A DNA stretch of 64,000 nt from Pseudomonadota bacterium (lineage in GTDB: Bacteria; UBA10199; 2-02-FULL-44-16; JBDRGF01): contig JBDRGF010000033.1 in NCBI GenBank assembly GCA_043818055.1, positions 32,001-96,000 of the forward strand, in the 5' to 3' direction. Below, one piece after another: positions 12,497-41,990 of the stretch. The position numbers were made by a program, and so were the translations under genes. The first letter of the stretch is position 1. The number at the start of each line of letters is the position of its first letter. The notes under the pieces are model-generated. The model saw nothing but the letters and a program-made list of their open reading frames with translations, did no database searches and was not told the DNA's origin.

Positions 12497-13306
12497 TTAT
12501 CTTTGCCCGATATATTGAAAATCGTCACTTATACAAATTTCAGGAAGGTATGTTGCTCGGATTATCCTTTGTGGAATTTTTTGATCAAACAGTTGAAGCA
12601 AATATTTGAGAGTTCCTGCTATTCCGTGTTTATATTTATTGGCTTTCAAAATAATATCGTTATATTCAATTCCAATTGAAAAGCCTCGTTGGTGAATAAT
12701 CTCGTTATCTCTGTATCTCTGTAAAACTTTAAAATCCTCCCAAAATCTTTGACTTTTATCAAAAACAATTCCTGTGAATTTGGGAATCCAAAAGTCAATT
12801 TTATCATCAAAACCTACTTTCATCTCTTTTGAATCATTCAGGTTGTCATTTGGATAATTATCATTCCAAATTTGTGCTTTTTCATTGATAAACGCTTCAA
12901 TGCTTGCAACGCCAAATACTATCGCTGTTTGTATATCCTGAATTATTCCTATTTCAATTCCTGTGTAAAGTCTTGAGAGCGAATAATTAAAAGAATGCAT
13001 ATAAGGACTAAAAGCAATGATGCCCGGGGCTTCAATTGTTTGTCCGATCTCTTGTTTTGGTAGTAATGTTTTGCCGTTAAATTTTCCGAGTTCACAAGCA
13101 GCTGAGAAACTTCCACCTAGAACATCTTCTACTAATGGTACACCTTCGTGAAAATTCCTACATTTCTCGACTGTTTTATTAAATATTTCTCCAGAATATC
13201 CCTGGTCTATATACAGTTGAATGACATCATCGATATCACCAAACTTTTCAGGATCGTCACTTTGAGCTAATTCCAGAATTAATTGTTTTGTTGCATTGAC
13301 TGACAT
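12497..13306 (-). CDS. Hypothetical protein with possible HEPN-like C-terminal domain
   Basis: AIVFGVASIEAFIN helix and RDNEIIH (Rx5H) motif; AT-rich; start uncertain (13306 or 13345). Confidence 0.5.
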   Translation of the reverse strand: MSVNATKQLILELAQSDDPEKFGDIDDVIQLYIDQGYSGEIFNKTVEKCRNFHEGVPLVEDVLGGSFSAACELGKFNGKTLLPKQEIGQTIEAPGIIAFSPYMHSFNYSLSRLYTGIEIGIIQDIQTAIVFGVASIEAFINEKAQIWNDNYPNDNLNDSKEMKVGFDDKIDFWIPKFTGIVFDKSQRFWEDFKVLQRYRDNEIIHQRGFSIGIEYNDIILKANKYKHGIAGTLKYLLQLFDQKIPQRIIRATYLPEICISDDFQYIGQR

Positions 13307-13438
13307 TTTTTTAAAAGAAATTTTGTCATACAATAATTTTAACACACCATTTACTGCTTAACACTTATAACTTATATCAGCTCAACACCATACACATCGA
13401 CTCGTTAGTAAGTCACCAAAAATTCTAAAAGCACCAAA

Positions 13439-14638
13439 TTATTTTACAACAAATGTAACTTGACTACTTATACTCTTTAGCAACATGTTCAACTCCAGAT
13501 AACCATCTGTTTTTAAAATAAAATAACCAAATCTAGACGTAAGATCTACAAACTTTTTAACATAATCCCCTTTACTAACTCCTATATTCCACTCTACGAC
13601 TTTAGGATTGTTTAGTACTTCCAAATTTTTAATTTCTAGTAGTTGCCCTGACTTCGATGAAGTAAAATTATTAATGGCAGAAAGATACCTACTATTAACA
13701 TTTAAATTTACATGGCCATTAGTTAATACGTTAAGGTATGCTTCATAAAAATTAAACTGGTAGCTATTTGTTATCAAATCTGGCAATAGACTCCCTGGTA
13801 AACGCCCTGCGCATTCAACCAGAATAATTTTGTCATCTTGTAACATCCATTCAGCATGTAGCACTCCATTTTCTACTTCAAGTGCTTTCGCAAGTCTTGT
13901 TTGATTCTCAATAATTTTAGCTCTTTGTAAGGAATTGAGATCTTTAGGTACTATGCGAATTTGCTTCGTTGAATAATCTGTGACATTTAGAAATATTATT
14001 TCTTTATTCTTTACCAAACATTCTACACTTACCTCATTACCTTCAATAAACTCTTCAACCATGAATTCCCATTTTATCGGACGATCAACAACTAATGGTT
14101 CTGTGGCATTAACTGTTAAATTAAATGTTTTCTCAATGTCATTTGGTGAGGAGATTTTATTAACACCAATACTCCCATCACGATTAGCCGGTTTAAAAAT
14201 GACGGGAACATCCTCGAAAAAATCCTTCAATTCCTCAAGAGATTCAATTTTTTTAAACAAAGGAGAATTAATCCCTGCCTTCAAACACAGCTCACGCAAT
14301 GTTAATTTATTCGTTAAGCATTGAGCGGCTTTCTCCCCCAATCTTGGCAATCCCAATAATTCAGCAGCTCGGCTTGCTGCGAGCACTCCAGCTTCACGTG
14401 CCGCGACAACACCAGAAAATTTGACTTGTGCACTCCACTCTTTAACAACACTCAAATATTCTTCACTCTGATGATATTTCGCTAATTTCAGACCCTTTAT
14501 TGATGCAAACGCGTATTTCGATTTATCGTCTTTTAGATAAACGTCCTCTTCCTCAATTAAATATACGTTTATTTTAACGTTACTTTTTTCAAGGGCTCGA
14601 ATAAAATATCTTTGGCGACCAATCATTAATATATTCAC
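13439..14638 (-). CDS. ATP-grasp ligase (L-amino-acid-ligase-like)
   Basis: NKLTLR, IFKPANRDGSIGV, VEEFIEGNEVSVE, HAEW, VECAGRLPG. Confidence 0.85.
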   Translation of the reverse strand: MNILMIGRQRYFIRALEKSNVKINVYLIEEEDVYLKDDKSKYAFASIKGLKLAKYHQSEEYLSVVKEWSAQVKFSGVVAAREAGVLAASRAAELLGLPRLGEKAAQCLTNKLTLRELCLKAGINSPLFKKIESLEELKDFFEDVPVIFKPANRDGSIGVNKISSPNDIEKTFNLTVNATEPLVVDRPIKWEFMVEEFIEGNEVSVECLVKNKEIIFLNVTDYSTKQIRIVPKDLNSLQRAKIIENQTRLAKALEVENGVLHAEWMLQDDKIILVECAGRLPGSLLPDLITNSYQFNFYEAYLNVLTNGHVNLNVNSRYLSAINNFTSSKSGQLLEIKNLEVLNNPKVVEWNIGVSKGDYVKKFVDLTSRFGYFILKTDGYLELNMLLKSISSQVTFVVK

Positions 14639-16620
14639 TCTTTCCCTCCTAATTTGATTTCTTTCATAAGATGATCATAACCTTTTCTAATATTAGATAA
14701 TATTTCATTTAAATCCTCACGCAGAGGTTTTTGCGACAAATTTAATTTTCCATAAATAAATTCAGAGCAGGCTGGCACAAAGAGAAAGAGAATCCCAAGA
14801 AGATATTTCACAGCACGTTGAAGTATAATTTTTTCCCCATTTTCTAACTGCAAATCTTTTTCAAGCCAGACTCTTGGAATTGTTTTTCTTACAAGTGTCT
14901 CCACAACCAAGCGAGATTTAACATATTCAAACCGAGCTAAATGCTGGTCAATTTTATTAAGAACACCCACCAAATCAGTTACAACTTGCTTCAACAGCTT
15001 TTCATCGCCCCCCCCATTGATAAGTGTCTCGCCTTCGGCCATTGATGCAGACAAAATTAATTCAATGAAGTTATTGAGTTTCTTAGTCACATTATTGCCT
15101 AGTCTCAATTCAGCCTCAACTAAGGTACGATCTCGTCCAAGAGCAGTACCCAATGCCCACCATCTCACATTATCAGTCGAATACATATTAATATAAGGCG
15201 TAATATTTCCTGGCGAAAGAACTCTTTCTTTAAATGAATTACCATCTCCTTGTAAGTAACCATGAGAAACTATTATATCAGGTTTCAAAACCCAATCAAT
15301 CAAAGTGGAAAGAACAATTGTGCTATAATGCCAGCATTTTGCGCTTGCCAAACGATGAATCCTCACAATTTTCGATGGCACCTTTTTTAGCCTGCTGGCA
15401 ACTAAAGTGGCTGACATCGCTGCAACAAACATCGTATCCAAAACCATTATCTTCCCGTCCTCATTCTTATTGTCATTATTCCATACAATGTCACCATTTC
15501 CTAAAAATCCAAATGGACTCAAAACTCCAAATTTTCTAGATCTCGTAATGGGCCAATCATCACCTGTATCTGTCAAAAATTGGTGTAATATATTCAATCC
15601 CGTTTTGGGGTACCATTCAATTGATTGAGCGCTTGCCTTTATATCATTTATTTTATCTCGCAACTTAACAGTTACAGTAGGTTCGGAAGAGATTAACACC
15701 GTGTCATTACAGGTTTTATGTTTAGTCAGAAGCATGGAAATTTCCATCGTATCAGTAGAAATTTTCGGTAAAGGTATCTTTTGGAGCACTGATCGCGAAT
15801 AAATACTTATGCCAAGTTTCTTCATAGCTTTTTTGTGCAATGAGAAATACCAAGGTGATAGTTCGGGCCCAACTAGTACATATGAGTTGTTGGGAAAATT
15901 AGGCAAATAGGCTTTCAATACAGGAATCCTCGCATTGTTTATGACAAGAGGTTCCATTAAAGACATTTCTTTCATTGGTGATGAAACGGTTTGAATAAGA
16001 CAAGAAAAATATGAATCTTTTTTTTCTTCAGGTATGATCAGCTCAAAGCGTTTCCCCGAAACAGTTAGAGTATATTTGTTAATTACTCTTTTCTCATGGA
16101 TCTCATATAGCTGATGATGCAATACCTCTTTTCCACAACTTGGGCATCTCAATGAGTAACGAACGCCAGAATATATCAACCCTTTTTCCATTAATTCTTT
16201 ACATACATTATATGCTAAAATTTGAGTTTCCGACTGCACTGATGCATATTCATGGGACCAATGAGGAACATATCCTAAGCGTAAAAATTGTTTTTTTATC
16301 AATTTGATTCGATCCGCAACCTCATCATTGCACTGCTGCACATCGCCATCAAGAAGGTTTTCCAGCTCAATACTGTGACAGTCAAACCCCTGTGGCAACA
16401 AAACAGATATACCTTTTGATTCTAACCATAATGAATACGTCTCAGCTAAAACATGTGGAATAGCGTGATGAAGATGCAAAAACCGATCGGTGTATGGCGG
16501 TGGAGTGTCAATCAATACATCAACAGGCTCAAGCAAACTTCTATGGACGTTCTCCCACCGTTTTTGAGCATAGGCTTCGACATCAGACAAAATGATAGAT
16601 TTATTTGTTGAATAAAGCAT
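14635..16620 (-). CDS. Degenerate class Ia aminoacyl-tRNA-synthetase-like protein (ValRS-like paralog)
   Basis: DTPPPY..LHLHHA (HIGH-like), PQGFDCH, DWPITRSRKFG, VLDTMF. The KMSKS position reads ERVLSPGN. Confidence 0.72.
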   Translation of the reverse strand: MLYSTNKSIILSDVEAYAQKRWENVHRSLLEPVDVLIDTPPPYTDRFLHLHHAIPHVLAETYSLWLESKGISVLLPQGFDCHSIELENLLDGDVQQCNDEVADRIKLIKKQFLRLGYVPHWSHEYASVQSETQILAYNVCKELMEKGLIYSGVRYSLRCPSCGKEVLHHQLYEIHEKRVINKYTLTVSGKRFELIIPEEKKDSYFSCLIQTVSSPMKEMSLMEPLVINNARIPVLKAYLPNFPNNSYVLVGPELSPWYFSLHKKAMKKLGISIYSRSVLQKIPLPKISTDTMEISMLLTKHKTCNDTVLISSEPTVTVKLRDKINDIKASAQSIEWYPKTGLNILHQFLTDTGDDWPITRSRKFGVLSPFGFLGNGDIVWNNDNKNEDGKIMVLDTMFVAAMSATLVASRLKKVPSKIVRIHRLASAKCWHYSTIVLSTLIDWVLKPDIIVSHGYLQGDGNSFKERVLSPGNITPYINMYSTDNVRWWALGTALGRDRTLVEAELRLGNNVTKKLNNFIELILSASMAEGETLINGGGDEKLLKQVVTDLVGVLNKIDQHLARFEYVKSRLVVETLVRKTIPRVWLEKDLQLENGEKIILQRAVKYLLGILFLFVPACSEFIYGKLNLSQKPLREDLNEILSNIRKGYDHLMKEIKLGGKE

Positions 16621-18025
16621 AGGGTAATTCAGTTTTATCCATGTAATTCATTTTTTTATCCAGCTGTGTCAAATCCTTATCTAATCCTTGCCAACGCCAT
16701 GAATACACCCTCATAAAATCCTCTTCTGAATTAACTATTTTCGGAAGAATTTTAGAAAGAGCAAACATCTGCTTATAGCTAAAATCAAAGGAGGGATTTA
16801 TTTTCAGGTGATCCCATTCAAGGTTAGAATCAGCCAAGGAGATGGAGGTACCATATTTTTTTTCATAATGCTTCAAGTTTCTGAATATTTCAGCTCCGGG
16901 AAAGGCATATAACGCACTACAGGTCAGAAAACCGATCTTCTTTTTGTTCTTCAAAATAAATTCGATTGTCTTCGATAAGGTTTCAGGAGTTTCTCCGATA
17001 TAGCCAATGATGAAGTTGCACCACAACTTGACCCCATTCTCATAAAAAAGATCTATTAATTCTTGGGACCTACACAAGTATTCTTTTGGATTTCGTGTCT
17101 TATTCATCCGCAACAGGATCTCTTCGCTCGCAGATTCCACCCCAAAATACACGCTGGTTATGTCCAGTTGTTTTAGATACTCGATCCATTTTTCATAATT
17201 AATATCACATCTTGTATACGCTTGAATAAGCAATTTATCCTTATGCGGAATAAGGTTTTCTAATAACTTCAACGTATTGCTCTCATCCATTCCAAATGTT
17301 GAGCATCCAATATTAACAAACAATTTTTCTTCATTATAGAGTTTATAAACTTCCAGAATCTCTGCAATAACATTCTGCCATTTTTTAATTTTAATTTTTT
17401 GCTTTGAGTCACTGTTAACGCAAAAATTGCATCGAAATGGACACCCCCTACTCTCCTCAACAGTAGGAATTTTTTGTGAATAGTTATTTAACAACTTATA
17501 GTTCAATGATCCCAGCTGTTCGAATGACAAAGATTTAGGAGGATTTACAACAATTTTATTGTTCGATTTATACACCAAACCAGGTGAATTTAAATAATCA
17601 GAGTCAGGAAAATTCCTTATCAGGTGCAATACTGTGGACTCGCCTTCATCGAAACACGCATACTTCAACTCTGGAATTTGGCTAAAAACATTCTCCCTCA
17701 ATCCGATGACATGCTGCCCGCCAACGATAACAAGCGTCTCTTTGAAATCGCTAAGTGCCTTAACCGCCGTCATCAAAGAACCATAGGAAAAGGATGAAGT
17801 ACAATTGATCGCTATAATCTTTACTGTATTGTTTTTCACAAAATCCAGGAGCTCACTCAAAAAGTTCTTTTCATGTTGGAAATCGAGTAGTTTAACCTTG
17901 TAACCATTATTGTATACGTAACTCGCAATAGATAGTATCCCAACGTTGATATTATTCTTTGTGTGCTTTGGATAATTCGTTTCCACAAGAGGATCGATAA
18001 TTACCAAATCATATACTTCACTCAT
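16601..18025 (-). CDS. Cobalamin-binding radical SAM enzyme (class B methyltransferase-like)
   Basis: N-terminal B12-binding region (GILSIASY, IVGGQH, EGE), ESRGCPFRCNFC, FGVESAS, IIGYIGET. Confidence 0.88.
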   Translation of the reverse strand: MSEVYDLVIIDPLVETNYPKHTKNNINVGILSIASYVYNNGYKVKLLDFQHEKNFLSELLDFVKNNTVKIIAINCTSSFSYGSLMTAVKALSDFKETLVIVGGQHVIGLRENVFSQIPELKYACFDEGESTVLHLIRNFPDSDYLNSPGLVYKSNNKIVVNPPKSLSFEQLGSLNYKLLNNYSQKIPTVEESRGCPFRCNFCVNSDSKQKIKIKKWQNVIAEILEVYKLYNEEKLFVNIGCSTFGMDESNTLKLLENLIPHKDKLLIQAYTRCDINYEKWIEYLKQLDITSVYFGVESASEEILLRMNKTRNPKEYLCRSQELIDLFYENGVKLWCNFIIGYIGETPETLSKTIEFILKNKKKIGFLTCSALYAFPGAEIFRNLKHYEKKYGTSISLADSNLEWDHLKINPSFDFSYKQMFALSKILPKIVNSEEDFMRVYSWRWQGLDKDLTQLDKKMNYMDKTELPYALFNK

Positions 18026-18041
18026 AAAACCCTCGTTTCAA

Positions 18042-19154
18042 TTAATGTTGTTCAACATCATCAGAAGCTCCGCCATAGCAATCGTTGTTGTAGTTATATT
18101 TCATAATAGGACAAAGTGGTATAATGACATTTTCCTCACATCTCGGATCTTTGATATTGATTTTATCCTTAAGCAGTTTTGCATATCCGATGCATCCACC
18201 ACCACACAAATTCCAGTGTCGACAATCACCACACTCTGATTTGATATACGACCTGTTTAATTGCTTCCAATTGGAATCGTCACCAATGATATCTTTGAGT
18301 GCGTATTGATTGACATTACCGAGAACAATCGGAACATCGAGCCCAAAAACGCATGGATAAACATTACCATCGCAACGTATCATTATGTATGTCCTCGTTT
18401 TAAATATTTGACTACATCCACCACCACAACCACTAAACTCAGAAATATCGATATTGGGAGTTTCTTTCCATTTCATATACGCAGGCTCAATAATGATATC
18501 CACATCACCTATTCTCTTATTCTTTCTTTTTTCAAGGATCCGTTTTGAAATTTGTTCATATCCATTTAGATACTCTTCAGGTAAGATCCAAAGATCGGGA
18601 TATTTGGCTCCCCGCCCTATCGCTGAAAAATAAAACCCAGAAACACACCTAACCCCCAAATTGCTCAGTTTTTCGACCAAGCCCGGGAAAGTAAAAAGTG
18701 TCTTCTTATTTAAAACGGCGTTAACTCTAACCTTCCAATTTAGATTCAGTGCAACCGCAATAGCCTGCATTGCCTTTTCATAAGCACCTTTACCACGGAT
18801 ATAATCGTTAATTTCTTTGTCTGATGAATCAATGCTGATCATGATTGATTGAAGCCCTAATTCTGAAAGCTCTTCTGCATATTTCTGGCTGAGCAAAACG
18901 CCGTTTGTTTGAAGGCGCACCTCAATGTTCAAATCTTTACAGTAAGCAAGAACGATTTTCAGATCTTCTCTCAACAAGGGCTCACCACCAGTTAAGTGTA
19001 TATGTTCCATTCCAAGCTCTTTGGCTTGATTAATGACATCTATAATTTGGTCAGTAGAAAGCTCAGGCAACTTCAGTTCATTCGATGAAAAACAACAAAC
19101 CTTACAGCTAAGATTACACCTATTAGTCATATGAAGATCGAGTTCTTTAAGCAT
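18042..19154 (-). CDS. Radical SAM/SPASM-domain enzyme
   Basis: CNLSCKVC, TGGEPLLR, GNVYPC...CGDCRHWNLCGGGC...DPRC. Confidence 0.9.
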   Translation of the reverse strand: MLKELDLHMTNRCNLSCKVCCFSSNELKLPELSTDQIIDVINQAKELGMEHIHLTGGEPLLREDLKIVLAYCKDLNIEVRLQTNGVLLSQKYAEELSELGLQSIMISIDSSDKEINDYIRGKGAYEKAMQAIAVALNLNWKVRVNAVLNKKTLFTFPGLVEKLSNLGVRCVSGFYFSAIGRGAKYPDLWILPEEYLNGYEQISKRILEKRKNKRIGDVDIIIEPAYMKWKETPNIDISEFSGCGGGCSQIFKTRTYIMIRCDGNVYPCVFGLDVPIVLGNVNQYALKDIIGDDSNWKQLNRSYIKSECGDCRHWNLCGGGCIGYAKLLKDKINIKDPRCEENVIIPLCPIMKYNYNNDCYGGASDDVEQH

Positions 19155-20145
19155 CGGTAATACCTTTTTTGTATGCCTCCGCAGCGATAAGACAAAGTGA
19201 ATCAACACCCAATCCACCTCTCTCTATAAAACTGCTCGCGGGACATCCCTTTTTGCAGTTGGTTGAAAAATCACAATTCAAACAAGCTGTATTTGCATTT
19301 TTTATTGCCTCAGAACGAAACGCTTTTAGCTTCGACCAGGACTCCTTGCCCAACTGACTCAAAAGAATGCAAGGTAAAAATTCTCCTTTTGCATCAAGGG
19401 CAAATATCGAGTTGCCAGCATCACATTCACAAAAGGGCATATTTGAAATGGTCCTCTTTGTGTTAATTGTCAAAGATGTATATTTCTTTCTGCAGTCATT
19501 AAGTATTTTACTTAATTGTGCTTGTGTTGTTGCATTGGCAAGAAAATTACTTTTAGTATTGTATGGCATCAAACCTAATAGCGTAACGGACTCAACACCC
19601 AACTGATGACACATTGCTATTGTTTCTGTGAGCGTGGCCATTGTTTCTTCAGTCAACACAGAGATGATATGAATCATCAATCCATTCTTAATTAGCAATT
19701 CTATTGCCTTGATTGTCTTACCCCAAGCCCCAATCTGTTTTCTGTGTTTATCGTGAACGCTTGCATTTGAGCTTTCCAGCGAAACAGAGATTTCACTTAA
19801 ATAAGATGCTAATATTTTTACATTCCCTTCATTCACCAATGTTGCATTCGTACAGATATCCACATTAAAATTTGACTGATGCAATCTTTGGATGAGTTCC
19901 TCCAACCAAGGTAGCAAAAGTGGTTCACCCCCTGAAAGAATGACGTCTTTAATTCCTTGTCTTTTCAGAAATGGAATTGTGTTAAGCGCGTCTTCATAAC
20001 TCCATTCAGCAACCGATTGCCCATAGCGGTGACATGTCGGACAGTTCAAATTACACCTTGTCGTAAGCTCCCAAAGCAATCGTCTATCCGTGCTTTTGTT
20101 TGGGCTGCGGAAACAACATATGCTGTTGTAATAGTTGTCTGTCAT
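19147..20145 (-). CDS. Radical SAM/SPASM-domain enzyme
   Basis: WELTTRCNLNCPTC, SGGEPL, CDAG...LPC...CLNCDFSTNCKKGC...DSLC. Confidence 0.9.
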   Translation of the reverse strand: MTDNYYNSICCFRSPNKSTDRRLLWELTTRCNLNCPTCHRYGQSVAEWSYEDALNTIPFLKRQGIKDVILSGGEPLLLPWLEELIQRLHQSNFNVDICTNATLVNEGNVKILASYLSEISVSLESSNASVHDKHRKQIGAWGKTIKAIELLIKNGLMIHIISVLTEETMATLTETIAMCHQLGVESVTLLGLMPYNTKSNFLANATTQAQLSKILNDCRKKYTSLTINTKRTISNMPFCECDAGNSIFALDAKGEFLPCILLSQLGKESWSKLKAFRSEAIKNANTACLNCDFSTNCKKGCPASSFIERGGLGVDSLCLIAAEAYKKGITDA

Positions 20146-20155
20146 AGTAATTCCA

Positions 20156-21262
20156 TTAATATAAATGTGGATAAAAAATTAATGTTGGCAAATACCCATC
20201 ATGTATCGAAATCCGATTTGAAACATTCATGTCCTTTAACTCTGGTAATTCAGAAAGATCTACGTTGCTATTTTCACGAAACGGACAGTAAGGATCCCTT
20301 TCGGATAACGCGTTATAATAAAGTATTCTTCGATCCTTGACCCCTCCTTTACACGTTGTCTCAAATTCACACTCCTTGCACAATGCAGGCTTTACAGTTT
20401 CACGCAGTAATGCAAATTGCTGCCTCTCTCCAATTCGATCAAGAATCTGATTTTCAAGAATACTACCAGCTATCCAATCCCTTCCGACCAAATAGGTTGA
20501 CGGCGTGATATCGCCGGTTGGCAAAATTCTTAAACTTGAAACACCAGACATATCATCAGAAATTCGAGATTGTTTAAAAATACTTGAAAAGAGAGGATCT
20601 GAAAGTACAGCAACTTTGTAACGTTTCATTATCCATGAAAGAGCTTTATAGACTGTCTTTGAAGAAGGGGGAGATAACCGATTATTCGTAGGACGAAATA
20701 GATTAATGCGCACCATGGCATTGTGCTGTGATGCTACATCAAAAATCCCTTTTAAATTTTCTTTGGTGAGGGTATCCTCAATTCCAATCATTACTATCGT
20801 GCTTTTAATATTAGCTTGTGTGCAAAAATCTAAAGTTCCAATCGCCCACTCAAAAGCGCTTTCATGTCCTCTTATTTTATTGTGTTTGTTTGGATTTGAG
20901 TAGTCAAGAGATACATCAATTTCATTTATACATCTGCTCACTAGATTTTGATAGAATGAGTCATTTTTCACGACTTCAAACAAATAACCATTTGTTGTAA
21001 GTGCCTGTAATATATTAGGAAAATACTTACGCGCATAATCAATTAAATCGAACCAAATTGGAGTTAGAGCATTTTCTCCTGTGCCGTAGTTTATTGAATC
21101 AATATAATTGTGATTATTAGAAATAAAATTTCGTAATGTATCTAAATTAAGAGTATCCTTACCTTCTCGCGCATCAATGCTGTAACAAAATGAACATCTC
21201 ATGTTACATGCTTTTGTGATTCCCCATCCAATTTGCCATTTAGTTCCCAACTGACAATTCAT
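20156..21262 (-). CDS. Radical SAM/SPASM-domain enzyme (partly degenerate SPASM)
   Basis: CNMRCSFC, YGTGEN, CKECEFETTCKGG...DPYC. Confidence 0.88.
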   Translation of the reverse strand: MNCQLGTKWQIGWGITKACNMRCSFCYSIDAREGKDTLNLDTLRNFISNNHNYIDSINYGTGENALTPIWFDLIDYARKYFPNILQALTTNGYLFEVVKNDSFYQNLVSRCINEIDVSLDYSNPNKHNKIRGHESAFEWAIGTLDFCTQANIKSTIVMIGIEDTLTKENLKGIFDVASQHNAMVRINLFRPTNNRLSPPSSKTVYKALSWIMKRYKVAVLSDPLFSSIFKQSRISDDMSGVSSLRILPTGDITPSTYLVGRDWIAGSILENQILDRIGERQQFALLRETVKPALCKECEFETTCKGGVKDRRILYYNALSERDPYCPFRENSNVDLSELPELKDMNVSNRISIHDGYLPTLIFYPHLY

Positions 21263-21319
21263 AATTACTTACCCCAAATATTATTTTGTAACAGATAAAT
21301 CAATCAACCTTAAACACTC

Positions 21320-21335
21320 GCAAAAATTATGCCAA
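21320..21335 (-). promoter_or_regulatory. Sigma54 (-24/-12) promoter of the radical SAM operon
   Basis: TTGGCATAATTTTTGC has exact GG-N10-GC spacing, ~58 bp upstream of the ATG at 21262. Confidence 0.75.
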
Positions 21336-21407
21336 AATGGTAAAAAACATAACCATTTGAAATTATACTTGTTTTTTTTAAAAATCGTTAATAACAATTA
21401 ATTATTT

Positions 21408-21445
21408 GTCCAAAAAATCGGACTCGAGAGTCCAGAAAATCAGAC
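21408..21445. promoter_or_regulatory. Putative tandem upstream activator sites for a sigma54 enhancer-binding protein
   Basis: GTCCaaaaaatcGGAC and GTCCagaaaatcAGAC, 22 bp apart; IHF-like TTTCAAATGGTTA (minus strand, ~21350-21362) lies between them and the promoter. Confidence 0.5.
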
Positions 21446-21499
21446 ACTCCAGATCGAACGGTTATATCAAAGGATGGATTTTAATAAAAAATTAAACAA

Positions 21500-23008
21500 T
21501 TATATTTTCTTCCATTCTGTCTTTTGAGAAGTATCTCTAATCTCAATTCCTAAGTCTCGTAACATGTTGCGAATTCGATCCGCTTGTTTGAAGTTCTTTG
21601 TTTTGCGAGCTTCATTTCTCTCTGAAATGAGATTTTCAATTTTTCGGATGAAATTAGCATCCACCTCTTCGACTCCATAGTCAAAAATAACGCCTAGAAT
21701 GGAATCAAAAACTTTTAAAACCTGTAAACAAGTTTTAGCTTGTTCTTTTGAAAGCATACCAACTGAATTTATTTTTGTCACAAAATTAAAAACGTACGCC
21801 AAACTCCCTGATATATTTAAATTATCATTTAAAGAATCGACAAACCCAGTTTGTGCTTCACAGCAGATCTTAGAAATATTAACCTCAACATCCTCATGGA
21901 TCGAACCCTTCTCGTATGCAAGCAACTTGTCCCTCAATTCCACCAAACGGTTAATGTTGCTTTTCGCTTGGCCTAGCGAAGTTAATGTAAAATTCATAGT
22001 TTGAGCATAATGCGTTGTCATGAGTGCCCACCTGATTGCAAGAGGATGATGTCCCATATTGATTAGATCTCGAATTGTATAAAAATTACCCTTTGACTTA
22101 CTCATCTTTTCGCCATCCACAAGCAAGAACTTCGCGTGTATCCAGTAATTGACGAAAGGTGCACCATTAGCACACATGGATTGAGCTATTTCGCATTCAT
22201 GATGCGGAAACTTATTATCCTCTCCACCAGTATGAATATCGATCGTATCGCCTAGCAATTCCTTTATCATAGCCGAACATTCTATGTGCCAGCCTGGAAA
22301 ACCGACACCCAACTCAGTCTCCCACTTCATAATATGCGTGTCGTCCTTCTTCCAAAGTGCGAAATCATAAGGATTTCTTTTAATGGCGGACTTAATTTCA
22401 TCTATGCGCCCGCCAGCTCCCGTCTTTAAAGATTCCATGGTATTATTTGACAAACGACCGTATTCCTTAAATGAAGAAATATCAAAATAATATGCGCCAT
22501 CAGATGCCTTATACGCATAGCCCTTGTCGATAAGAGCTTTAATCATCTTAACCATTGTATCGATATGTTCAGTCGCTCTTGGAAAACTCATCGGCTTTTT
22601 AAGATTGAGGGCATTAAAATCTTCCTTGAATGCTTTGATATAAAAGTCAGCAACATCCCATGGAGACTTAAAATCAAGATCCTTATATCCCTCCTTGCGA
22701 CCAGCTTTTTTCGATTTCAGCTGATTTACAGCGAGAGTCATTTTATCCTCTCCGCCACCTTCAGGGAAATCATCGTTAGTCATGTGACCTACATCGGTTA
22801 TATTCATAACTTGCTGCACTTCATATCCGTTTTGCTCCAAAACTCTCCGAAGCAAATCAGCCATAAGAAAGGTTCTAAAATTACCGATGTGAGCATAGTC
22901 ATAGACTGTAGGACCACAATTATACATCTTAACAATAGGATGACTGATAGCTCTGAATGGAGTTAGGCTGTTTGTGAAACTATTATATAATGTCAGTTCC
23001 TTAGTCAT
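21500..23008 (-). CDS. cysS: Cysteine--tRNA ligase (island-encoded, possibly a second copy)
   Basis: CGPTVYDYAHIGN, DFALWK, PGWHIECSAM, FPHHECE, KMSKS all intact. Confidence 0.95.
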   Translation of the reverse strand: MTKELTLYNSFTNSLTPFRAISHPIVKMYNCGPTVYDYAHIGNFRTFLMADLLRRVLEQNGYEVQQVMNITDVGHMTNDDFPEGGGEDKMTLAVNQLKSKKAGRKEGYKDLDFKSPWDVADFYIKAFKEDFNALNLKKPMSFPRATEHIDTMVKMIKALIDKGYAYKASDGAYYFDISSFKEYGRLSNNTMESLKTGAGGRIDEIKSAIKRNPYDFALWKKDDTHIMKWETELGVGFPGWHIECSAMIKELLGDTIDIHTGGEDNKFPHHECEIAQSMCANGAPFVNYWIHAKFLLVDGEKMSKSKGNFYTIRDLINMGHHPLAIRWALMTTHYAQTMNFTLTSLGQAKSNINRLVELRDKLLAYEKGSIHEDVEVNISKICCEAQTGFVDSLNDNLNISGSLAYVFNFVTKINSVGMLSKEQAKTCLQVLKVFDSILGVIFDYGVEEVDANFIRKIENLISERNEARKTKNFKQADRIRNMLRDLGIEIRDTSQKTEWKKI

Positions 23009-23145
23009 AGTGTTTTAATAACTATAATGAAGTCCATGTGATTGTCTATATCAAAAATTTGTTTTTTATATGGTGGCTTGACAGAAAATAGAGAAACTGT
23101 CACTAATAAGCGCATATCCTTATTGGAAAGGGTTTTTAAAAAACT

Positions 23146-24324
23146 ATGAATTTTATATACACATTTTTGAAACCAGCTCAAAGCAATTTTGAATTGTTGA
23201 AGAAATGGAGTACCATTTCGATTTACAATCCAGAAAATCCCGTAGTAGTTAAAATCACAGTTCCTTTAGGCGAAGTCTTTCAGAAGAATCAATTTGTTTT
23301 AATTGGGAATTCTCTCACAGGAGAGTATAAAAAAGCGATTAGTTCAGCTGCTATCAAGGGATACGAACTGTTACGAAACTCAGCTGAACAAGCGATCAAG
23401 CTTAAAACTCACACAGAAGTTTCGGATCCACACGGACAAATTGTAAAAACCTTTGATGAAGCCGCCAAACTCATTATGGAGCAATTGACACTTTTAGAAA
23501 AAACGGAATCCACAGATGCATTTCAAATTATAATTCCGCTTCAATTAGATACTTCTATTCAATTTAAAAACATGACAAGTCTACAGATCAAAAAAATGCT
23601 AGAGGCTGGCTGGAAAAGTGTAATTGTGCCAAGTGGTGCAATTGAACAACATGGCCCCCACTTGCCAATGAACACTGATATCTATTTAGCAACGGTGCTT
23701 TCAAATTTAATAGCTCAGGAATTAGGAATGATGTTAGTCTCATATGGAATTGCTCCCGGATGCTCTGACAATCATCTTCCTTTTGCCGGCACGCTATCGT
23801 TGGACCAAGATACATTCAAATCTGTACTAAAGAGGATGACTCGCAATTTGATCTCTCATGGTTTCAAAGAAATCATACACTTTCCTTTCCATGGAGGTAA
23901 TTTTAATCCAACTCAAGAAGCAATTAGAGAGCTGAGAGCCGAATTTGAAACACAAAAAATCAAAATTATAGGCCCAAAACAAGGCAGTATGGACAAGAAA
24001 GACTTTTTTAATACCCTAGAATCTGCTTTGCATATACACTTTCCTGACAAACCTGATGACTGGCACGCAGGTTGTATTGAAACATCGATGATGCTATATG
24101 CTGATCCTTTTCTTGTAAGAAAGGAATTGGTCGAAGTTGGTTACACTGGAAAACCAATCCCGTCTGAAATTGTGAACCGAGAAGGTCTTAATAAGTATAC
24201 GGCTAACGGCATTTGGGGGGATCCAGTTGGATATAGCATAGAATTAGGTGCTTTAATCTTTCGAAAACTGATTGCCAGAGCTATCCAACATATAGAATCT
24301 GAAAGAAACAAAAACGTTACCTAG
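23146..24324 (+). CDS. Creatininase-family amidohydrolase with ~140-aa unknown N-terminal extension
   Basis: GAIEQHGPHLPMNTD, FAGTLSL, HGGN, DWHAGCIETS, NGIWGDP. Confidence 0.85.
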   Translation: MNFIYTFLKPAQSNFELLKKWSTISIYNPENPVVVKITVPLGEVFQKNQFVLIGNSLTGEYKKAISSAAIKGYELLRNSAEQAIKLKTHTEVSDPHGQIVKTFDEAAKLIMEQLTLLEKTESTDAFQIIIPLQLDTSIQFKNMTSLQIKKMLEAGWKSVIVPSGAIEQHGPHLPMNTDIYLATVLSNLIAQELGMMLVSYGIAPGCSDNHLPFAGTLSLDQDTFKSVLKRMTRNLISHGFKEIIHFPFHGGNFNPTQEAIRELRAEFETQKIKIIGPKQGSMDKKDFFNTLESALHIHFPDKPDDWHAGCIETSMMLYADPFLVRKELVEVGYTGKPIPSEIVNREGLNKYTANGIWGDPVGYSIELGALIFRKLIARAIQHIESERNKNVT

Positions 24325-24370
24325 TTACAAGCTATAACTTTTTTTTAAATTTAGCTAAGTTGAATATATC

Positions 24371-25639
24371 ATGATAAAGAAACTGTTATCGATTCCCACC
24401 TTATATAAAAAAGCTCCAAAGGAAATATACATTCTCGCTTTGTCTAGAATAATTAACAGCTCAGGCAATTTTGTTTATCCCTTTCTAGCCCTCTTTATTA
24501 CACAAAAATTACAGCTATCTGCGAAAACAGCGGGAACGGCTGTTCTTCTTGTTTCAATTGCTTCGATTCTTGGCACATTAGTTGGTGGGAAACTAACGGA
24601 TCATAGTCGGCTTGGTCGGAAAAAAATTATGATTATCGCACAATTCTTTTGTGCCATAAACTTAATTCTGTGTACTCAGTTCGCCCATTCATACATAATT
24701 TTATTCTTTATTTTTATTTCACATTTTTTCCATGGAATCTTTAGCCCAGCAAATAAAGCAATGGCAATAGACTTGACGGATAAAAACAATAGGTATCCTT
24801 CATTCTCCTTAATTTATTTGGGACATAATATAGGCTGTTCTATAGGACCTCTTTTAGCTGGTTTTCTATTTAAAAATTATATCATGTGGTTATTTATTGG
24901 AGACGCACTAACTACACTTATTTCAGCTTTAATCATTGCAATATTTCTACATGAAACGCGTCCATCAAACGAGAAGATAGAGTCGAGCTACACAAAACAA
25001 TCACAGGAACGAGCCGAACAAGGCAATGTCTTTGTCAGTTTATTTAAAAGACCCAACCTCTTGTTTTTTGTTGTATTACTTATCATTCTACAAATTGTTT
25101 ATTCTCAGCGACATTTTTCACTTCCATTGCAGTTAAATCTCATTTATGGAAATACTGAAGGTCCAATTCTTTTTGGAACTATGATGACAATAAATTCATT
25201 GTTTGTGATCGCTTTTACTACCATAATCACTTCATTCACAAACAAGTTCAATCCTCTTATAAATGAATCTATCGCTAGCATATTTTATGCTCTGGGATTC
25301 GGAATGATCATTTTCACCCACTCTATTCCGTTCTTCATAATTTCTACATCTCTATGGACAATTGGTGAAATTCTATATTCCACCAATTCTTCTGTTTATA
25401 TCGCTAACCACACTCCTATTTCACATAGAGGAAGATTTAATGCGATTATACCCTTAGCAATGTATGTTGGATATGGACTTGGTCCATTATTAATGGGAAA
25501 AGTTATCGAATTACATAATCTCCAATATGTATGGATATCAACTTTTCTCCTAGCATCATTCGCAGCTTTTGCATTATGGACATTGCACATCTTAGAAAAA
25601 ACAAAACTGCAAACTGTGTTTAATAATGTTTCCAATTGA
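24371..25639 (+). CDS. MFS transporter (probable exporter)
   Basis: About 12 hydrophobic segments, GGKLTD..LGRKK motif A, NIGCSIGPLLAG, HRGRF. Confidence 0.9.
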   Translation: MIKKLLSIPTLYKKAPKEIYILALSRIINSSGNFVYPFLALFITQKLQLSAKTAGTAVLLVSIASILGTLVGGKLTDHSRLGRKKIMIIAQFFCAINLILCTQFAHSYIILFFIFISHFFHGIFSPANKAMAIDLTDKNNRYPSFSLIYLGHNIGCSIGPLLAGFLFKNYIMWLFIGDALTTLISALIIAIFLHETRPSNEKIESSYTKQSQERAEQGNVFVSLFKRPNLLFFVVLLIILQIVYSQRHFSLPLQLNLIYGNTEGPILFGTMMTINSLFVIAFTTIITSFTNKFNPLINESIASIFYALGFGMIIFTHSIPFFIISTSLWTIGEILYSTNSSVYIANHTPISHRGRFNAIIPLAMYVGYGLGPLLMGKVIELHNLQYVWISTFLLASFAAFALWTLHILEKTKLQTVFNNVSN

Positions 25640-25682
25640 GAATGCAATTTTGCGATAATCTTTTAGAAAGAGTGAATTTTGT

Positions 25683-26879
25683 ATGAAAGAAAATATACTA
25701 ATTTTGAATAACGCCAGATATGAGCACTACTATAAGAATAAAAAACCAATTATTGACTATAATCGTTACAACGTTTTTTTTATAACAAAAAAAGAATACG
25801 CTGCTGAAATTCCAGATAATGATTACTCAGAACTTCACTCCATCAATATGAGTGACAGCGACGCTGTATTCGAATTAGCAAGAAATATTCATTTAAGGTA
25901 TTTTATCAATCGTGTCATTGCACTATCCGAAAGTAACATTTTGGATGCAGCACGAATTAGAGAATTTTGTGGGTGTAAAGGAATGCCATTTAACCAAGTG
26001 CTAATATTAAGAGATAAATGTTTAATGAAAGAATACCTCAGTGGTAAAGGAATTAACGTCCCTGCATTTAAAAAATTATACTCAACTCAGAATGCCATAG
26101 AGTTTTACCAATTATATGGTAGAGTTGTGATCAAACCTGCGTTAGGAATGGGATCAAAGAATACCTACATTATTGATACAGAGACTAAGTTCAACTTAGC
26201 GTTAAAATGTATTAATAATAGCATTCTTGATTACGAAATTGAGGAATTTGTTGATGGAGATATGTATCATTGCGATTCCATCATAGTGGATGGACATGTT
26301 AAACTATGTAGCGTTAGTAAATATCTTGATTCCACATGCGGTTATTTAGAGAGTCAACCACTTGCATCAGTTATGGAAGATGACGAAAACATCTGCTCTA
26401 GGTTACAGACTTTTAACAGCATGATTCTTAAAGCTTTCGGCATCAAAAATGATGTTACACATCTTGAGGTCTTCTATAAGGATTCTAATATCGTATTTTG
26501 TGAAATTGCAATAAGAACAGGAGGGGGAGGAATTATTGATTCAGTTGAGCAGAAATATTCAATCAATCTCATGGAAACCCATCTCAAACTCCAACTTTCA
26601 CAATGTGAAAAATTACAACTATGTAGCAGAGATCTTTACAGTGGATTTGTTATGTTTTATGCGAAACCAGGGATAGTAGTCAATATTACACCGGCCGATA
26701 AATTTAATCAGGAATGGATATCTAAATTTAAAGTCTACATCAAAAAAGGCGATCGAGTCATTTTACCAAAATATAATGGAAAACCAGCCGCCATAGTAAT
26801 CATCGTTGGAAAGACGAAAGACGATTTGATCAATAAAGTTGAATGGGTAAAAAGCAATTTCAGAATTAGCTACATTTAA
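25683..26879 (+). CDS. ATP-grasp ligase (L-amino-acid-ligase-like)
   Basis: RDKCLMK, VIKPALGMGS, IEEFVDG, HLEVF, FCEIAIRTGG. Confidence 0.85.
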   Translation: MKENILILNNARYEHYYKNKKPIIDYNRYNVFFITKKEYAAEIPDNDYSELHSINMSDSDAVFELARNIHLRYFINRVIALSESNILDAARIREFCGCKGMPFNQVLILRDKCLMKEYLSGKGINVPAFKKLYSTQNAIEFYQLYGRVVIKPALGMGSKNTYIIDTETKFNLALKCINNSILDYEIEEFVDGDMYHCDSIIVDGHVKLCSVSKYLDSTCGYLESQPLASVMEDDENICSRLQTFNSMILKAFGIKNDVTHLEVFYKDSNIVFCEIAIRTGGGGIIDSVEQKYSINLMETHLKLQLSQCEKLQLCSRDLYSGFVMFYAKPGIVVNITPADKFNQEWISKFKVYIKKGDRVILPKYNGKPAAIVIIVGKTKDDLINKVEWVKSNFRISYI

Positions 26880-27017: not shown

Positions 27018-28058
27018 TCACCCCACCAGTTCAATTCTTTCACCCTCTGTCAACTCACCAAATGAATTTATCGCATGTTCAGCAAGCCCCATTTTTCTAG
27101 CAACTCTGATATATTCTTCCACATTTGAAGGATCGACTGCGACAAGCAATCCACCCGATGTCTGCGGGTCGGCTAAAATCTTTTGATTCTCCCCTGTGAG
27201 ACCTTCGACATGATGGCCATAGCTCCTAACATTTCGAAATGTTCCTCCGGGACAGCACTCTTTGTCGAGATAGTATTCAACTTCTTTAAGCAGAGGGACA
27301 TCATCAACTCTAATTACAGCTTTGAGCTTCGATCCTTGAGCCATTTCAAGGAGATGTCCCAAGAGTCCAAACCCGGTGACGTCGGTCATCGCGTGCACAC
27401 ATGATAGCTTTCCAAAGGCCTCACCTGCGCGATTCAATGCTGTCATTATCTCTACCGCTTTTCCTTCATCTGTCGGCTTTAGCACTCCGTGTTTTTGGGC
27501 GCTCGTGAGGATGCCTATACCAAGCGGCTTTGTGAGAAATAAAAGGTCCCCTGCCTTTGCGCCGTCATTTCTTTTTATATGGGCCTTTTTTATGGTGCCG
27601 TTCACGGCCAATCCAAATATCGGCTCAGGTGAATCAATGCTGTGTCCGCCGGCCAGCGGAATGTTCGCATCTTTGCAGACTTCGCTAGCCCCCCTCATCA
27701 CCTCCCTTGCAACATCGGGTGATAATTTATCTATCGGCCAGCCCAGGATCGATATCGCAAGGATCGGAGTCCCTCCCATCGCATACACGTCGCTGATCGA
27801 ATTCGTTGCAGCTACCCTGCCGAAATCGTATGGATCATCGACGATCGGCATGAAGAAATCGGTCGTACTGATCAGCGCCTCTCCGTTCCCCAGATCGACA
27901 ACGGCGGCATCATCCTTGCTCTCGTTGCCAACGATGAGATTTGGGAATTTCGTGTTGTTTTTCCCCTCTAAGATCTTCTCCAGCACATCAGGCGCGATCT
28001 TGCACCCGCACCCTGCCCCGTGGCTGTATTGTGTCAGTCGAACATTTTTTTTATCCAT
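27018..28058 (-). CDS. selD: Selenide, water dikinase (Cys-type)
   Basis: [51 protein letters not shown]. Confidence 0.97.
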
Positions 28059-28169
28059 AACGTTTTCTACCTTTTTTCTCAAGACTGTTCGAAAATGCTG
28101 AGGGAGTTCACCCGCCTCAACTTCCCCGTTATGCAACGGGAGAAGCCTTGTCAAGAGAAGTGATTCTGA

Positions 28170-30473: not shown

Positions 30474-30600
30474 CCAATATCGGAGCTTTATTTGAGTCTC
30501 ATCTCTGAGATGATCATTAAACCTATCCCTCCAAATTAATTTTGAACTTAAATCGTTGTCTTTATTAAATAGTCTAAAAAGTTCATGCCATTTTTTAAAG

Positions 30601-41649: not shown

Positions 41650-41718
41650 ATGTAATAAATTATTTCCTTAATAACTTACGCACTCAAGCACTTCTACACT
41701 TAAACACTGTTTTTCTTG

Positions 41719-41810
41719 CAGAGAGGGCAGGAATCGAACCTGCCACAGACGGTTTTATCCGGCCGCTACTGGCTTTGAAGGCCAGCTAAAACACCAGTTT
41801 ATTCCTCTCT
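41719..41810 (-). tRNA. selC: tRNA-Sec (anticodon UCA)
   Basis: CTGGC-CTTCAAA-GCCAG anticodon arm, long variable arm, GCAGG-TTCGATT-CCTGC T-arm, G discriminator; directly upstream of selA; CCA not encoded. Confidence 0.93.
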
Positions 41811-41990
41811 ATTCATGCCGACTTATGTGGAATCAACATAACTTTAATTCCTGGTCAATATAAATTCTATTTATGGAGATTTAAAAAATATTTAGGTGGT
41901 CGAATAAATCATGAATTACAACAGGTTAGAAAGGATGATCTCAGGGTTGAAATTTGACAAAGGGAGATAAAAGGAGCAAAATCTGCTTTA

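Follow-up and report, generated by a model that had tools for sequence, protein, structure and literature searches.

A low-GC gene island with a degenerate ValRS-like protein, a spare CysRS and four radical SAM enzymes, and its likeness to aminoacyl-nucleoside clusters

Synthetase-like proteins take part in the assembly of several bacterial small molecules. In the ascamycin cluster, a degenerate protein of this kind is accompanied by a second, intact synthetase: AcmF, which resembles a truncated alanyl-tRNA synthetase (AlaRS) and lacks activation residues, uses Ala-tRNA from AcmD (PMC12945691). The albomycin/SB-217452 cluster contains AbmF, AbmK, the radical S-adenosylmethionine (radical SAM) proteins AbmM and AbmJ, and the kinase AbmG (PMC8323819, PMC12691670). 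AbmF uses seryl-adenylate, while AbmK serves as both donor and immunity protein (PMC8323819). AgnA/AgnC1 are paired with a leucyl-tRNA synthetase (LeuRS) or, in putative clusters, a methionyl-tRNA synthetase of another family (PMC8323819), and SbzA of SB-203207, a class Ia synthetase-like protein, takes an aminoacyl group from tRNA and attaches it to a small molecule (PMC12945691, PMC6331615). Here, a 64,000-nucleotide stretch of contig JBDRGF010000033.1 from a Pseudomonadota bacterium (the window) is analysed, which carries a low-GC gene island of related design at 12497-26879.

An earlier note on this DNA had described a block of ten genes, 13439..26879, together with their protein families. 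The open reading frame (ORF) list places all ten at these coordinates, and Pfam assigns the same families: three radical SAM proteins (rSAM1, rSAM2 and rSAM3), a B12-binding radical SAM protein (B12-rSAM), a class I synthetase, a cysteinyl-tRNA synthetase (CysRS), a creatininase, a major facilitator superfamily (MFS) transporter and two ATP-grasp ligases. In its logic the island follows the clusters for ascamycin, albomycin and agrocin, and it is no member of the agn, blasticidin, mycofactocin, viperin, BacD or DdaF families. It would make an exported, peptide-masked aminoacyl-nucleoside that inhibits a tRNA synthetase, possibly CysRS; the chances that this reading is right are judged to be about even. 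The view of the locus as an undescribed, acquired small-molecule cluster, put forward in the note, is supported by the low GC content, the failures against NCBIfam models and the ligase and synthetase content. Among the block proteins, CysRS alone passes an NCBIfam cut-off; the set therefore does not match a characterised cofactor or housekeeping pathway, the alternative considered at the time.

The synthetase-like proteins of the island

The ValRS-like protein (14635..16620, minus strand; 661 aa) is a predicted aminoacyl transferase with the fold of valyl-tRNA synthetase (ValRS). Its predicted model agrees with ValRS models at a TM score of 0.79 over ~625 residues and retains a helical anticodon-type domain. 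At the alignment positions that we take to be those of the ValRS motifs HIGH, KMSKS and TTRPE, HLHH stands in place of HIGH, SFKER in place of KMSKS, and the editing motif TTRPE is gone. Against the valine–tRNA ligase model the protein scores 113 bits, with a cut-off of 738, PRK13208 being the best-scoring kind. Its identity as a valine–tRNA ligase was rejected, as the family cut-off is missed and the HIGH, KMSKS and editing motifs are lost. A search of 1.84 billion representatives yielded one true orthologue, P0122, which is 38% identical and has the same motif losses. The third-best match, P0268, was rejected as an orthologue because it keeps HMGH and TTRPE, and a metagenome scan with the orthologous pair gave eight loci, the six aligned of which were ordinary ValRS. 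Since P0122 shares the losses at 38% identity, the alignment suggests a maintained new function, the simplest being aminoacyl transfer without activation. Ordinary ValRS, isoleucyl-tRNA synthetase, LeuRS and CysRS are present elsewhere in the host genome.

The second synthetase gene, cysS (21500..23008, minus strand), encodes a CysRS of 502 aa with intact HIGN, zinc ligands, KMSKS and anticodon domain. It scores 463 bits against TIGR00435 (cut-off 340) and is 32% identical to the housekeeping copy, which lies on contig C125 within an apparent ispD-ispF-cysS run (labels assigned by eye). The synthetase paralogues pointed out in the note are thus resolved by alignment into a spare intact CysRS and a degenerate ValRS-like protein. 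Two cysS genes occur in 2 of 22 genomes of the order. CysRS paralogues are listed in the accessible part of PMC9437257 only for mycothiol and UGA decoding.

As in the albomycin, ascamycin and agrocin clusters, a synthetase-like protein that has lost activation residues is accompanied by an extra intact synthetase whose housekeeping copy lies elsewhere. The differences from ascamycin are that the transferase candidate is class I and ValRS-derived, that the spare synthetase is a CysRS, and that four radical SAM proteins and two ligases are present; sulfamate genes are absent from the family matches of the block. The likeness to albomycin would lie in radical SAM tailoring of a nucleoside, an amide-forming transferase, a spare synthetase acting as donor and immunity protein, and an uptake carrier (PMC8323819, PMC12691670). 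In contrast to albomycin, the window has no siderophore nonribosomal peptide synthetase, the mask would be a ligase-made peptide, and the predicted target is not seryl-tRNA synthetase. AbmM, the sole Abm protein compared, resembles rSAM1 only generically (Z 12.9, rank 21), with AbmM profile matches at E values of 8e-18 and 8e-16. The agrocin 84 cluster on plasmid pAgK84 is comparable: it comprises a synthetase-like protein (AgnA), a spare synthetase of another family (LeuRS), a radical SAM gene, NUDIX genes and an amidohydrolase-family gene. A tblastn search of 12 window proteins against pAgK84 found no orthologues and two generic matches, of the ValRS-like protein to LeuS (E 2e-9) and of rSAM3 to a radical SAM protein (E 0.007). 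SbzA keeps HYGH/AMSKA and doubles as a resistance copy (PMC12945691, PMC6331615), whereas the corresponding motifs are gone from the window protein, which stands beside a separate CysRS.

The radical SAM cassette and its company at other loci

The cassette comprises rSAM1 (20156..21262; 368 aa, SPASM fold, C-terminal HDGYLPTxxF), rSAM2 (19147..20145; 332 aa, N-terminal CCFR, twitch-type C241/C259), rSAM3 (18042..19154; 370 aa, radical SAM/SPASM, C-terminal PLCPIxKxN..GGxS) and the B12-rSAM (16601..18025; 474 aa), all on the minus strand; the longest frame of rSAM3 extends to 19217. The description of the first three as radical SAM/SPASM proteins holds for rSAM3, which matches Pfam SPASM, but rSAM1 has the fold only, and the relatives of rSAM2 mostly carry the twitch-type cysteines alone.

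A genome scan with rSAM1 returned 184 relatives, the best 80 of which were kept and represent 75 loci, many of them ending at contig edges. Neighbour families were assigned from 133 proteins chosen among 1,098 ORFs, mostly one per cluster. They include phosphorylases, pyrophosphatases, NUDIX proteins, nucleotide kinases, deaminases, B12 radical SAM proteins and HelD-like helicases. At 57 of the 75 loci and in 13 of 23 sequence groups (joined at 60% identity), nucleotide-handling enzymes are encoded on the same strand no more than 6 kb from rSAM1. For comparison, none of 16 host radical SAM neighbourhoods has such enzymes (2 of 16 on a wider definition), although the E value of this control was stricter (1e-12 vs 1e-5). 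The control covered 76 of 104 ORFs; 23 presumed radical SAM proteins and five short ORFs were excluded. An rSAM2-type gene is found at 8 of the 75 loci and an rSAM3-type gene at 7, and L069 and L028 have both.

The nearest relative with visible context is L069 (9980-17620 on contig C20 of genome G022). It consists of rSAM1, rSAM2, rSAM3, a degenerate glutaminyl-tRNA synthetase (GlnRS), a thymidylate kinase and an intact GlnRS; the kinase adds to the likeness with albomycin. The GlnRS-like protein (498 aa) has changed pocket and KMSKS-region residues, and the housekeeping GlnRS on another contig is 54% identical to the intact cassette copy. The GC content of this cassette is 0.279, compared with 0.371 upstream. 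A further lineage (L027:6646-13377, L031:5236-13352 and L042:306-8420) contains a truncated AlaRS, rSAM3, a zinc dehydrogenase, rSAM1, a B12-rSAM and a peptidase E, preceded in L031 and L042 by a RelA/SpoT gene. The truncated AlaRS (418-423 aa) has altered motifs and the domain content of AcmF, lies directly before rSAM3, and is complemented by a housekeeping AlaRS elsewhere. In L020, a spare ValRS of the PRK13208 kind lies two genes ahead of rSAM1. Synthetases beside the cassette are therefore known from four lineages including the window, three of which have a degenerate synthetase, each of another family. An rSAM3 score of at least 190 bits is reached at 4 of the 75 loci, all four with an adjacent synthetase-type gene.

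From these data we infer the following route. The three radical SAM proteins and the B12 enzyme would act on a cellular nucleotide to give a modified core that bears a free amine, as suggested by the neighbours of their families. The ValRS-like protein, presumably unable to activate an amino acid itself, would transfer one from a charged tRNA or an adenylate to this core, like AcmF and AbmF. The two ligases would add a peptide mask made of amino acids, and the prodrug would leave the cell through the MFS transporter. The spare CysRS may donate the cysteinyl group, resist the product, or both, like AbmK; with such a role as donor or resistance copy, CysRS would be the target. The amidohydrolase may tailor the base or cleave the product for self-protection, which is the weakest step.

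Several observations weigh against this reading. Relatives of the ligases, the amidohydrolase, the MFS transporter or the CysRS occur at none of the 75 loci, and the full set of ten genes, for which a conserved co-occurrence had been envisaged, was not found at any of them, so the right half is tied to the cassette by position and composition only. The block itself contains no kinase, NUDIX protein, phosphorylase or other nucleotide enzyme by Pfam; enzymes for a nucleoside scaffold are found beside the same radical SAM families at other loci. Kinship joins 43 of the 75 loci into one group, in which L020 is the sole member with a same-strand synthetase within 6 kb, and two neighbour labels rest on weak matches. 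At L015, L022, L037 and L040, rSAM1 is accompanied by glycosyltransferase/deacetylase sugar-polymer genes instead, and the rSAM3-type loci L028, L041 and L071 have no synthetase-like neighbour. Transferase candidate and spare synthetase belong to different families, ValRS and CysRS. A spare cysS is found in genome G010 beside a cysteine-synthase-like ORF and without such a cluster, and a cysS-like gene, in many cases without annotation, is present in 502 plasmid records of Klebsiella. Furthermore, the block appears to form three transcription units, with cysS predicted from the sequence to be transcribed separately, and in structure searches with rSAM1 the nucleoside enzyme BlsE ranks no higher than SPASM enzymes that act on peptides and proteins.

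The aminoacyl-nucleoside reading can be extended tentatively, and with considerable doubt, to a portable nucleoside-warhead cassette for which different lineages recruit and degrade different synthetases (ValRS, GlnRS and AlaRS), often with a spare intact copy as donor or shield. The product of the window would then be a peptide-masked cysteinyl-adenylate mimic and that of L069 a glutaminyl one. If the aminoacyl-nucleoside reading is right, uncultured bacteria of groundwater and gut possess a family of such pathways, based on three radical SAM families without a characterised member. Synthetases would have been converted into transferases repeatedly and independently, and the spare synthetase would point to the target, CysRS here and GlnRS in L069. 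With six genes in L069 and five or six in L027, these compact versions make the hypothesis directly testable, L069 being the simplest. In the titles and abstract starts of the open literature, with subscription papers and supplements outside the scope, nothing was found on this cassette, on a ValRS-derived transferase or on a natural CysRS inhibitor, and the literature searches made found no natural inhibitor of GlnRS either.

A common gut-bacterial version of the rSAM1 cassette is seen in L016, L017, L019, L024, L026, L029, L030 and their kin. The gene order is LysR, rSAM1, purine/methylthioadenosine phosphorylase, a deoxyribosyltransferase-like protein (weak match), a P-loop kinase-like protein, a B12 radical SAM protein, a pyrophosphatase and a HelD-like helicase. 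The product of this version may be a nucleoside analogue that acts on RNA polymerase, for which the helicase would provide rescue.

Ligases, composition and upkeep of the island

ATP-grasp ligase 1 (13439..14638, minus strand; 399 aa) is of the L-amino-acid ligase (LAL) type, with an LAL_C2 score of 36 (cut-off 29.4), and starts with a GTG codon preceded by AGGAGG. Ligase 2 (25683..26879, plus strand; 398 aa) stays below the same cut-off with a score of 25 and is 24% identical to ligase 1. The right half further contains the creatininase-family amidohydrolase (23146..24324, plus strand; 392 aa), which keeps the metal-ligand motifs, and the MFS transporter (24371..25639, plus strand; 422 aa), a predicted exporter. 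The 140-aa N-terminal part of the amidohydrolase (23146-23565, plus strand) matches no Pfam family. The pairing of L-amino-acid ligases with an MFS exporter noticed earlier is borne out, as both ligases resemble the family and, on plasmids, ligase 1 has its nearest relatives in ligase and MFS clusters. The closest of these relatives (37.5%) is located on a Bacillus plasmid (L142:4729-15374), along with three ATP-grasp proteins, aminodeoxychorismate genes, a peptidase U32 and an MFS transporter.

Bacilysin and the dapdiamides are ATP-grasp peptide antimetabolites whose clusters combine LAL-type ligases with an MFS exporter. The window shares this combination, but has no warhead genes in common with them and adds the radical SAM cassette and the synthetases. 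With 57 bits against BacD (cut-off 850) and 35 against DdaF (cut-off 840) in NCBIfam, the scores are far below the cut-offs, and both equivalogs were rejected.

This likeness underlies a different account, that of the note, in which the warhead made by the radical SAM proteins is a non-canonical amino acid or a phosphonate-like compound and no nucleoside, the ligases join it into a di- or tripeptide of the bacilysin kind, and the CysRS serves to discriminate against the analogue. Besides the LAL-type ligases with the MFS transporter and the plasmid relatives of ligase 1, which lie in clusters of the amino-acid-warhead type, it draws on the B12-rSAM, whose best NCBIfam model is PhpK-type, on the missing nucleotide enzyme of the block, and on a precedent for a tripeptide made by two ligases (PMC13149037). 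Nevertheless, it is considered unlikely. The PhpK-type match reaches 100 bits against a cut-off of 600, no phosphoenolpyruvate mutase is among the Pfam matches of the block, and a ValRS-like protein of tRNA-binding size would be redundant next to two ligases. The proposal of an unusual warhead that is ligated and exported therefore stands as far as a small-molecule cluster with ligases and MFS exporter is concerned, but the neighbours of the radical SAM families, being nucleotide enzymes, favour a nucleotide-derived warhead and a synthetase target over a bacilysin-like amino acid warhead.

The island is a real feature of the genome that was acquired and is maintained. With a GC content of 0.359, compared with 0.433 for the genome, the block ranks among the lowest 0.14% when set against 1,411 windows of equal size. 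Runs of ten ORFs that all have a GC content of at most 0.395 are found 3 times among 774, two of these being the block. The low-GC island consists of 11 consecutive ORFs (12497-26879), each at 0.326-0.393, and therefore includes a 282-aa ORF (12497..13345, minus strand) omitted from the earlier description. This ORF has no family and is likely a passenger; its RDNEIIH motif is taken to resemble a HEPN motif. The island is bounded by FNT and selD, both at 0.493, so that window ranking and per-ORF values agree with the AT-rich block seen earlier between these two genes. A strict empty site was not found: in genome G018, FNT and selD are adjacent but divergent, and its selD is only 41% identical. 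A search with the rSAM1 profile gave no match in 21 further genomes of the order, of which 16 are at least 90% complete.

In DNA runs X1 and X2, the island and its flanks have comparable coverage. Run X6 contains a diverged population with 38 listed changes and four further rows; 27 of the 38 are silent, compared with 26% expected (p ~1e-8). The listed changes lie in four genes, B12-rSAM, rSAM3, rSAM1 and the MFS transporter, while the rSAM2 region is covered and has no listed change. Taken together, the five genes covered by this population show purifying selection, and both halves of the island are represented. In RNA run X3, 29 of 30 bins, those of the flanks among them, are evenly covered by contigs, which may reflect carried-over DNA.

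The tight coupling reported for six minus-strand genes is seen in gaps of 10 nt (rSAM1/rSAM2) and 16 nt (rSAM3/B12-rSAM) and in overlaps of 8 nt (rSAM2/rSAM3, with the rSAM3 start at ATG 19154), 20 nt (B12-rSAM/ValRS-like) and 4 nt (ValRS-like/ligase 1). The last of these, 14635-14638, reads GTGA and not ATGA as had been stated. A promoter-like site upstream of rSAM1 (21362..21391, minus strand) matches 10 of 12 consensus positions, and a terminator-like hairpin (21434-21419) follows cysS; neither type of site is more frequent in the block than in shuffled sequence. The block contains no Rfam element and no tRNA.

These features bear on a second rival, a mosaic in which the six-gene operon, cysS, the amidohydrolase–MFS–ligase unit and the 282-aa ORF were acquired jointly or one after another and do not make one compound. 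The three apparent transcription units with the terminator-like site after cysS, a right half never found with the cassette, the many different contexts of rSAM1 and the frequency of spare cysS genes would all fit. Against it, the GC content is uniformly low over 11 ORFs, the diverged population carries pieces of both halves, the left operon already has a ligase and a synthetase-like gene, and a spare synthetase accompanies the cassette in L069 and L020 as well. A mosaic is accordingly regarded as improbable.

Beyond selD (27018-28154), a second AT-rich stretch extends over 28.2-33 kb with a GC content of 0.368. It contains two long AT-rich ORFs of 767 and 741 aa (28170-32826, minus strand). 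The 767-aa ORF has no match in Pfam, NCBIfam or PADLOC, and the 741-aa ORF has none in PADLOC. A tRNA-Sec is encoded at 41718-41811 of the window; no connection between selenium and the island was seen, though none was tested for.

Folds and relatives of the radical SAM enzymes

The rSAM1 proteins form a distinct uncharacterised family with 572 matched proteins and the C-terminal HDGYLPT motif. Four late cysteines, C295, C298, C304 and C326 in the window protein, are invariant in 45 of 45 alignment rows, while the usual position of the first auxiliary-cluster cysteine is a serine in 44 of 45 rows. As an enzyme of SPASM fold in which the usual first cysteines of the auxiliary cluster are replaced, rSAM1 is of interest by itself. 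The predicted model (pLDDT 91) has no RRE domain. Its best structural matches are anSME (Z 25.9), SuiB, ChlB, CteB and SkfB, with BlsE at Z 21.6, at 12-18% identity. Comparisons of the predicted fold and of PDB profiles do not decide the radical SAM substrate.

These top matches would suit SPASM enzymes that modify a peptide, protein or tRNA in the manner of mycofactocin or of ribosomally synthesised and post-translationally modified peptides (RiPPs), where the creatininase-type protein would release a piece and the synthetase-like protein add a residue; the pairing of radical SAM/SPASM proteins with a creatininase also recalls MftC/MftE. Such a role is highly improbable. The scores for MftC (67-121 vs 265) and MftE (115 vs 172) remain below the cut-offs, the RRE is missing, the gaps of the block, the only part searched, contain no precursor-like ORF, and an exporter with two small-molecule ligases fits poorly. 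Membership in the mycofactocin and RiPP groups was rejected on the first three of these grounds. Blasticidin membership was rejected as well: the block lacks the glycosyltransferase and hydrolase families of BlsD and BlsM, and the BlsE match, at 12-14% identity, is not above those of peptide-acting SPASM enzymes.

Viperin models (cut-off 180) give 56 bits for rSAM2 and 38 bits for rSAM1, and PADLOC matches cover part of the model; a prokaryotic viperin identity was rejected, as the scores are below the cut-off and the generic core alone is matched. The least probable account, a chain-terminating nucleotide analogue for intracellular use against phages or polymerases, stored or detoxified by aminoacylation, could invoke the kinase, pyrophosphatase and deaminase neighbours, the HelD-like helicase at 24 of the 75 loci, the presumed HEPN-like ORF of the island and the 4'-thiothymidine produced by a radical SAM enzyme, kinase and triphosphatase (PMC12691670), but is judged very improbable given the generic viperin matches and a window that has an exporter and ligases and neither kinase nor HelD.

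For rSAM3, ~63 close clusters were found, and in a quick tree the copies of the window and L069 fall within a 42-member clade (SH support 100). In random genome samples, this clade was matched in 1 of 401, 1 of 399 (2 unscored), 0 of 5, 0 of 351 and 0 of 351 genomes, each single match being G022, the genome of L069, itself. An IMG/VR scan with the rSAM3 alignment returned 35 distant radical SAM proteins, none full-length and close. In the plasmid collection, rSAM2 had no match, rSAM3 had generic matches only, and the relatives of rSAM1 are only 20-27% identical. Three of these distant rSAM1 relatives lie on plasmids of Enterococcus (L093:10350-17717), Streptomyces clavuligerus (L094:13145-18238) and Phaeobacter (L095:11890-21362), together with pyrophosphatase, AMP-binding, MFS, phosphotransferase or MATE genes.

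The longest contigs of the rSAM1 cluster P0098 (53 members) and the rSAM3 cluster P0165 (54 members) agree at 276860, 289765, 37179 and 97509. Members of both are therefore likely located on the same contigs of an often-sampled organism. Lastly, the host genome has two further runs rich in radical SAM genes, L147 (G000:C75:18190-31290) and L148 (G000:C159:31215-44315). One contains two MFS transporters, a methyltransferase and a radical SAM protein, and the other, low in GC, combines glycosyltransferases with several B12 radical SAM proteins.

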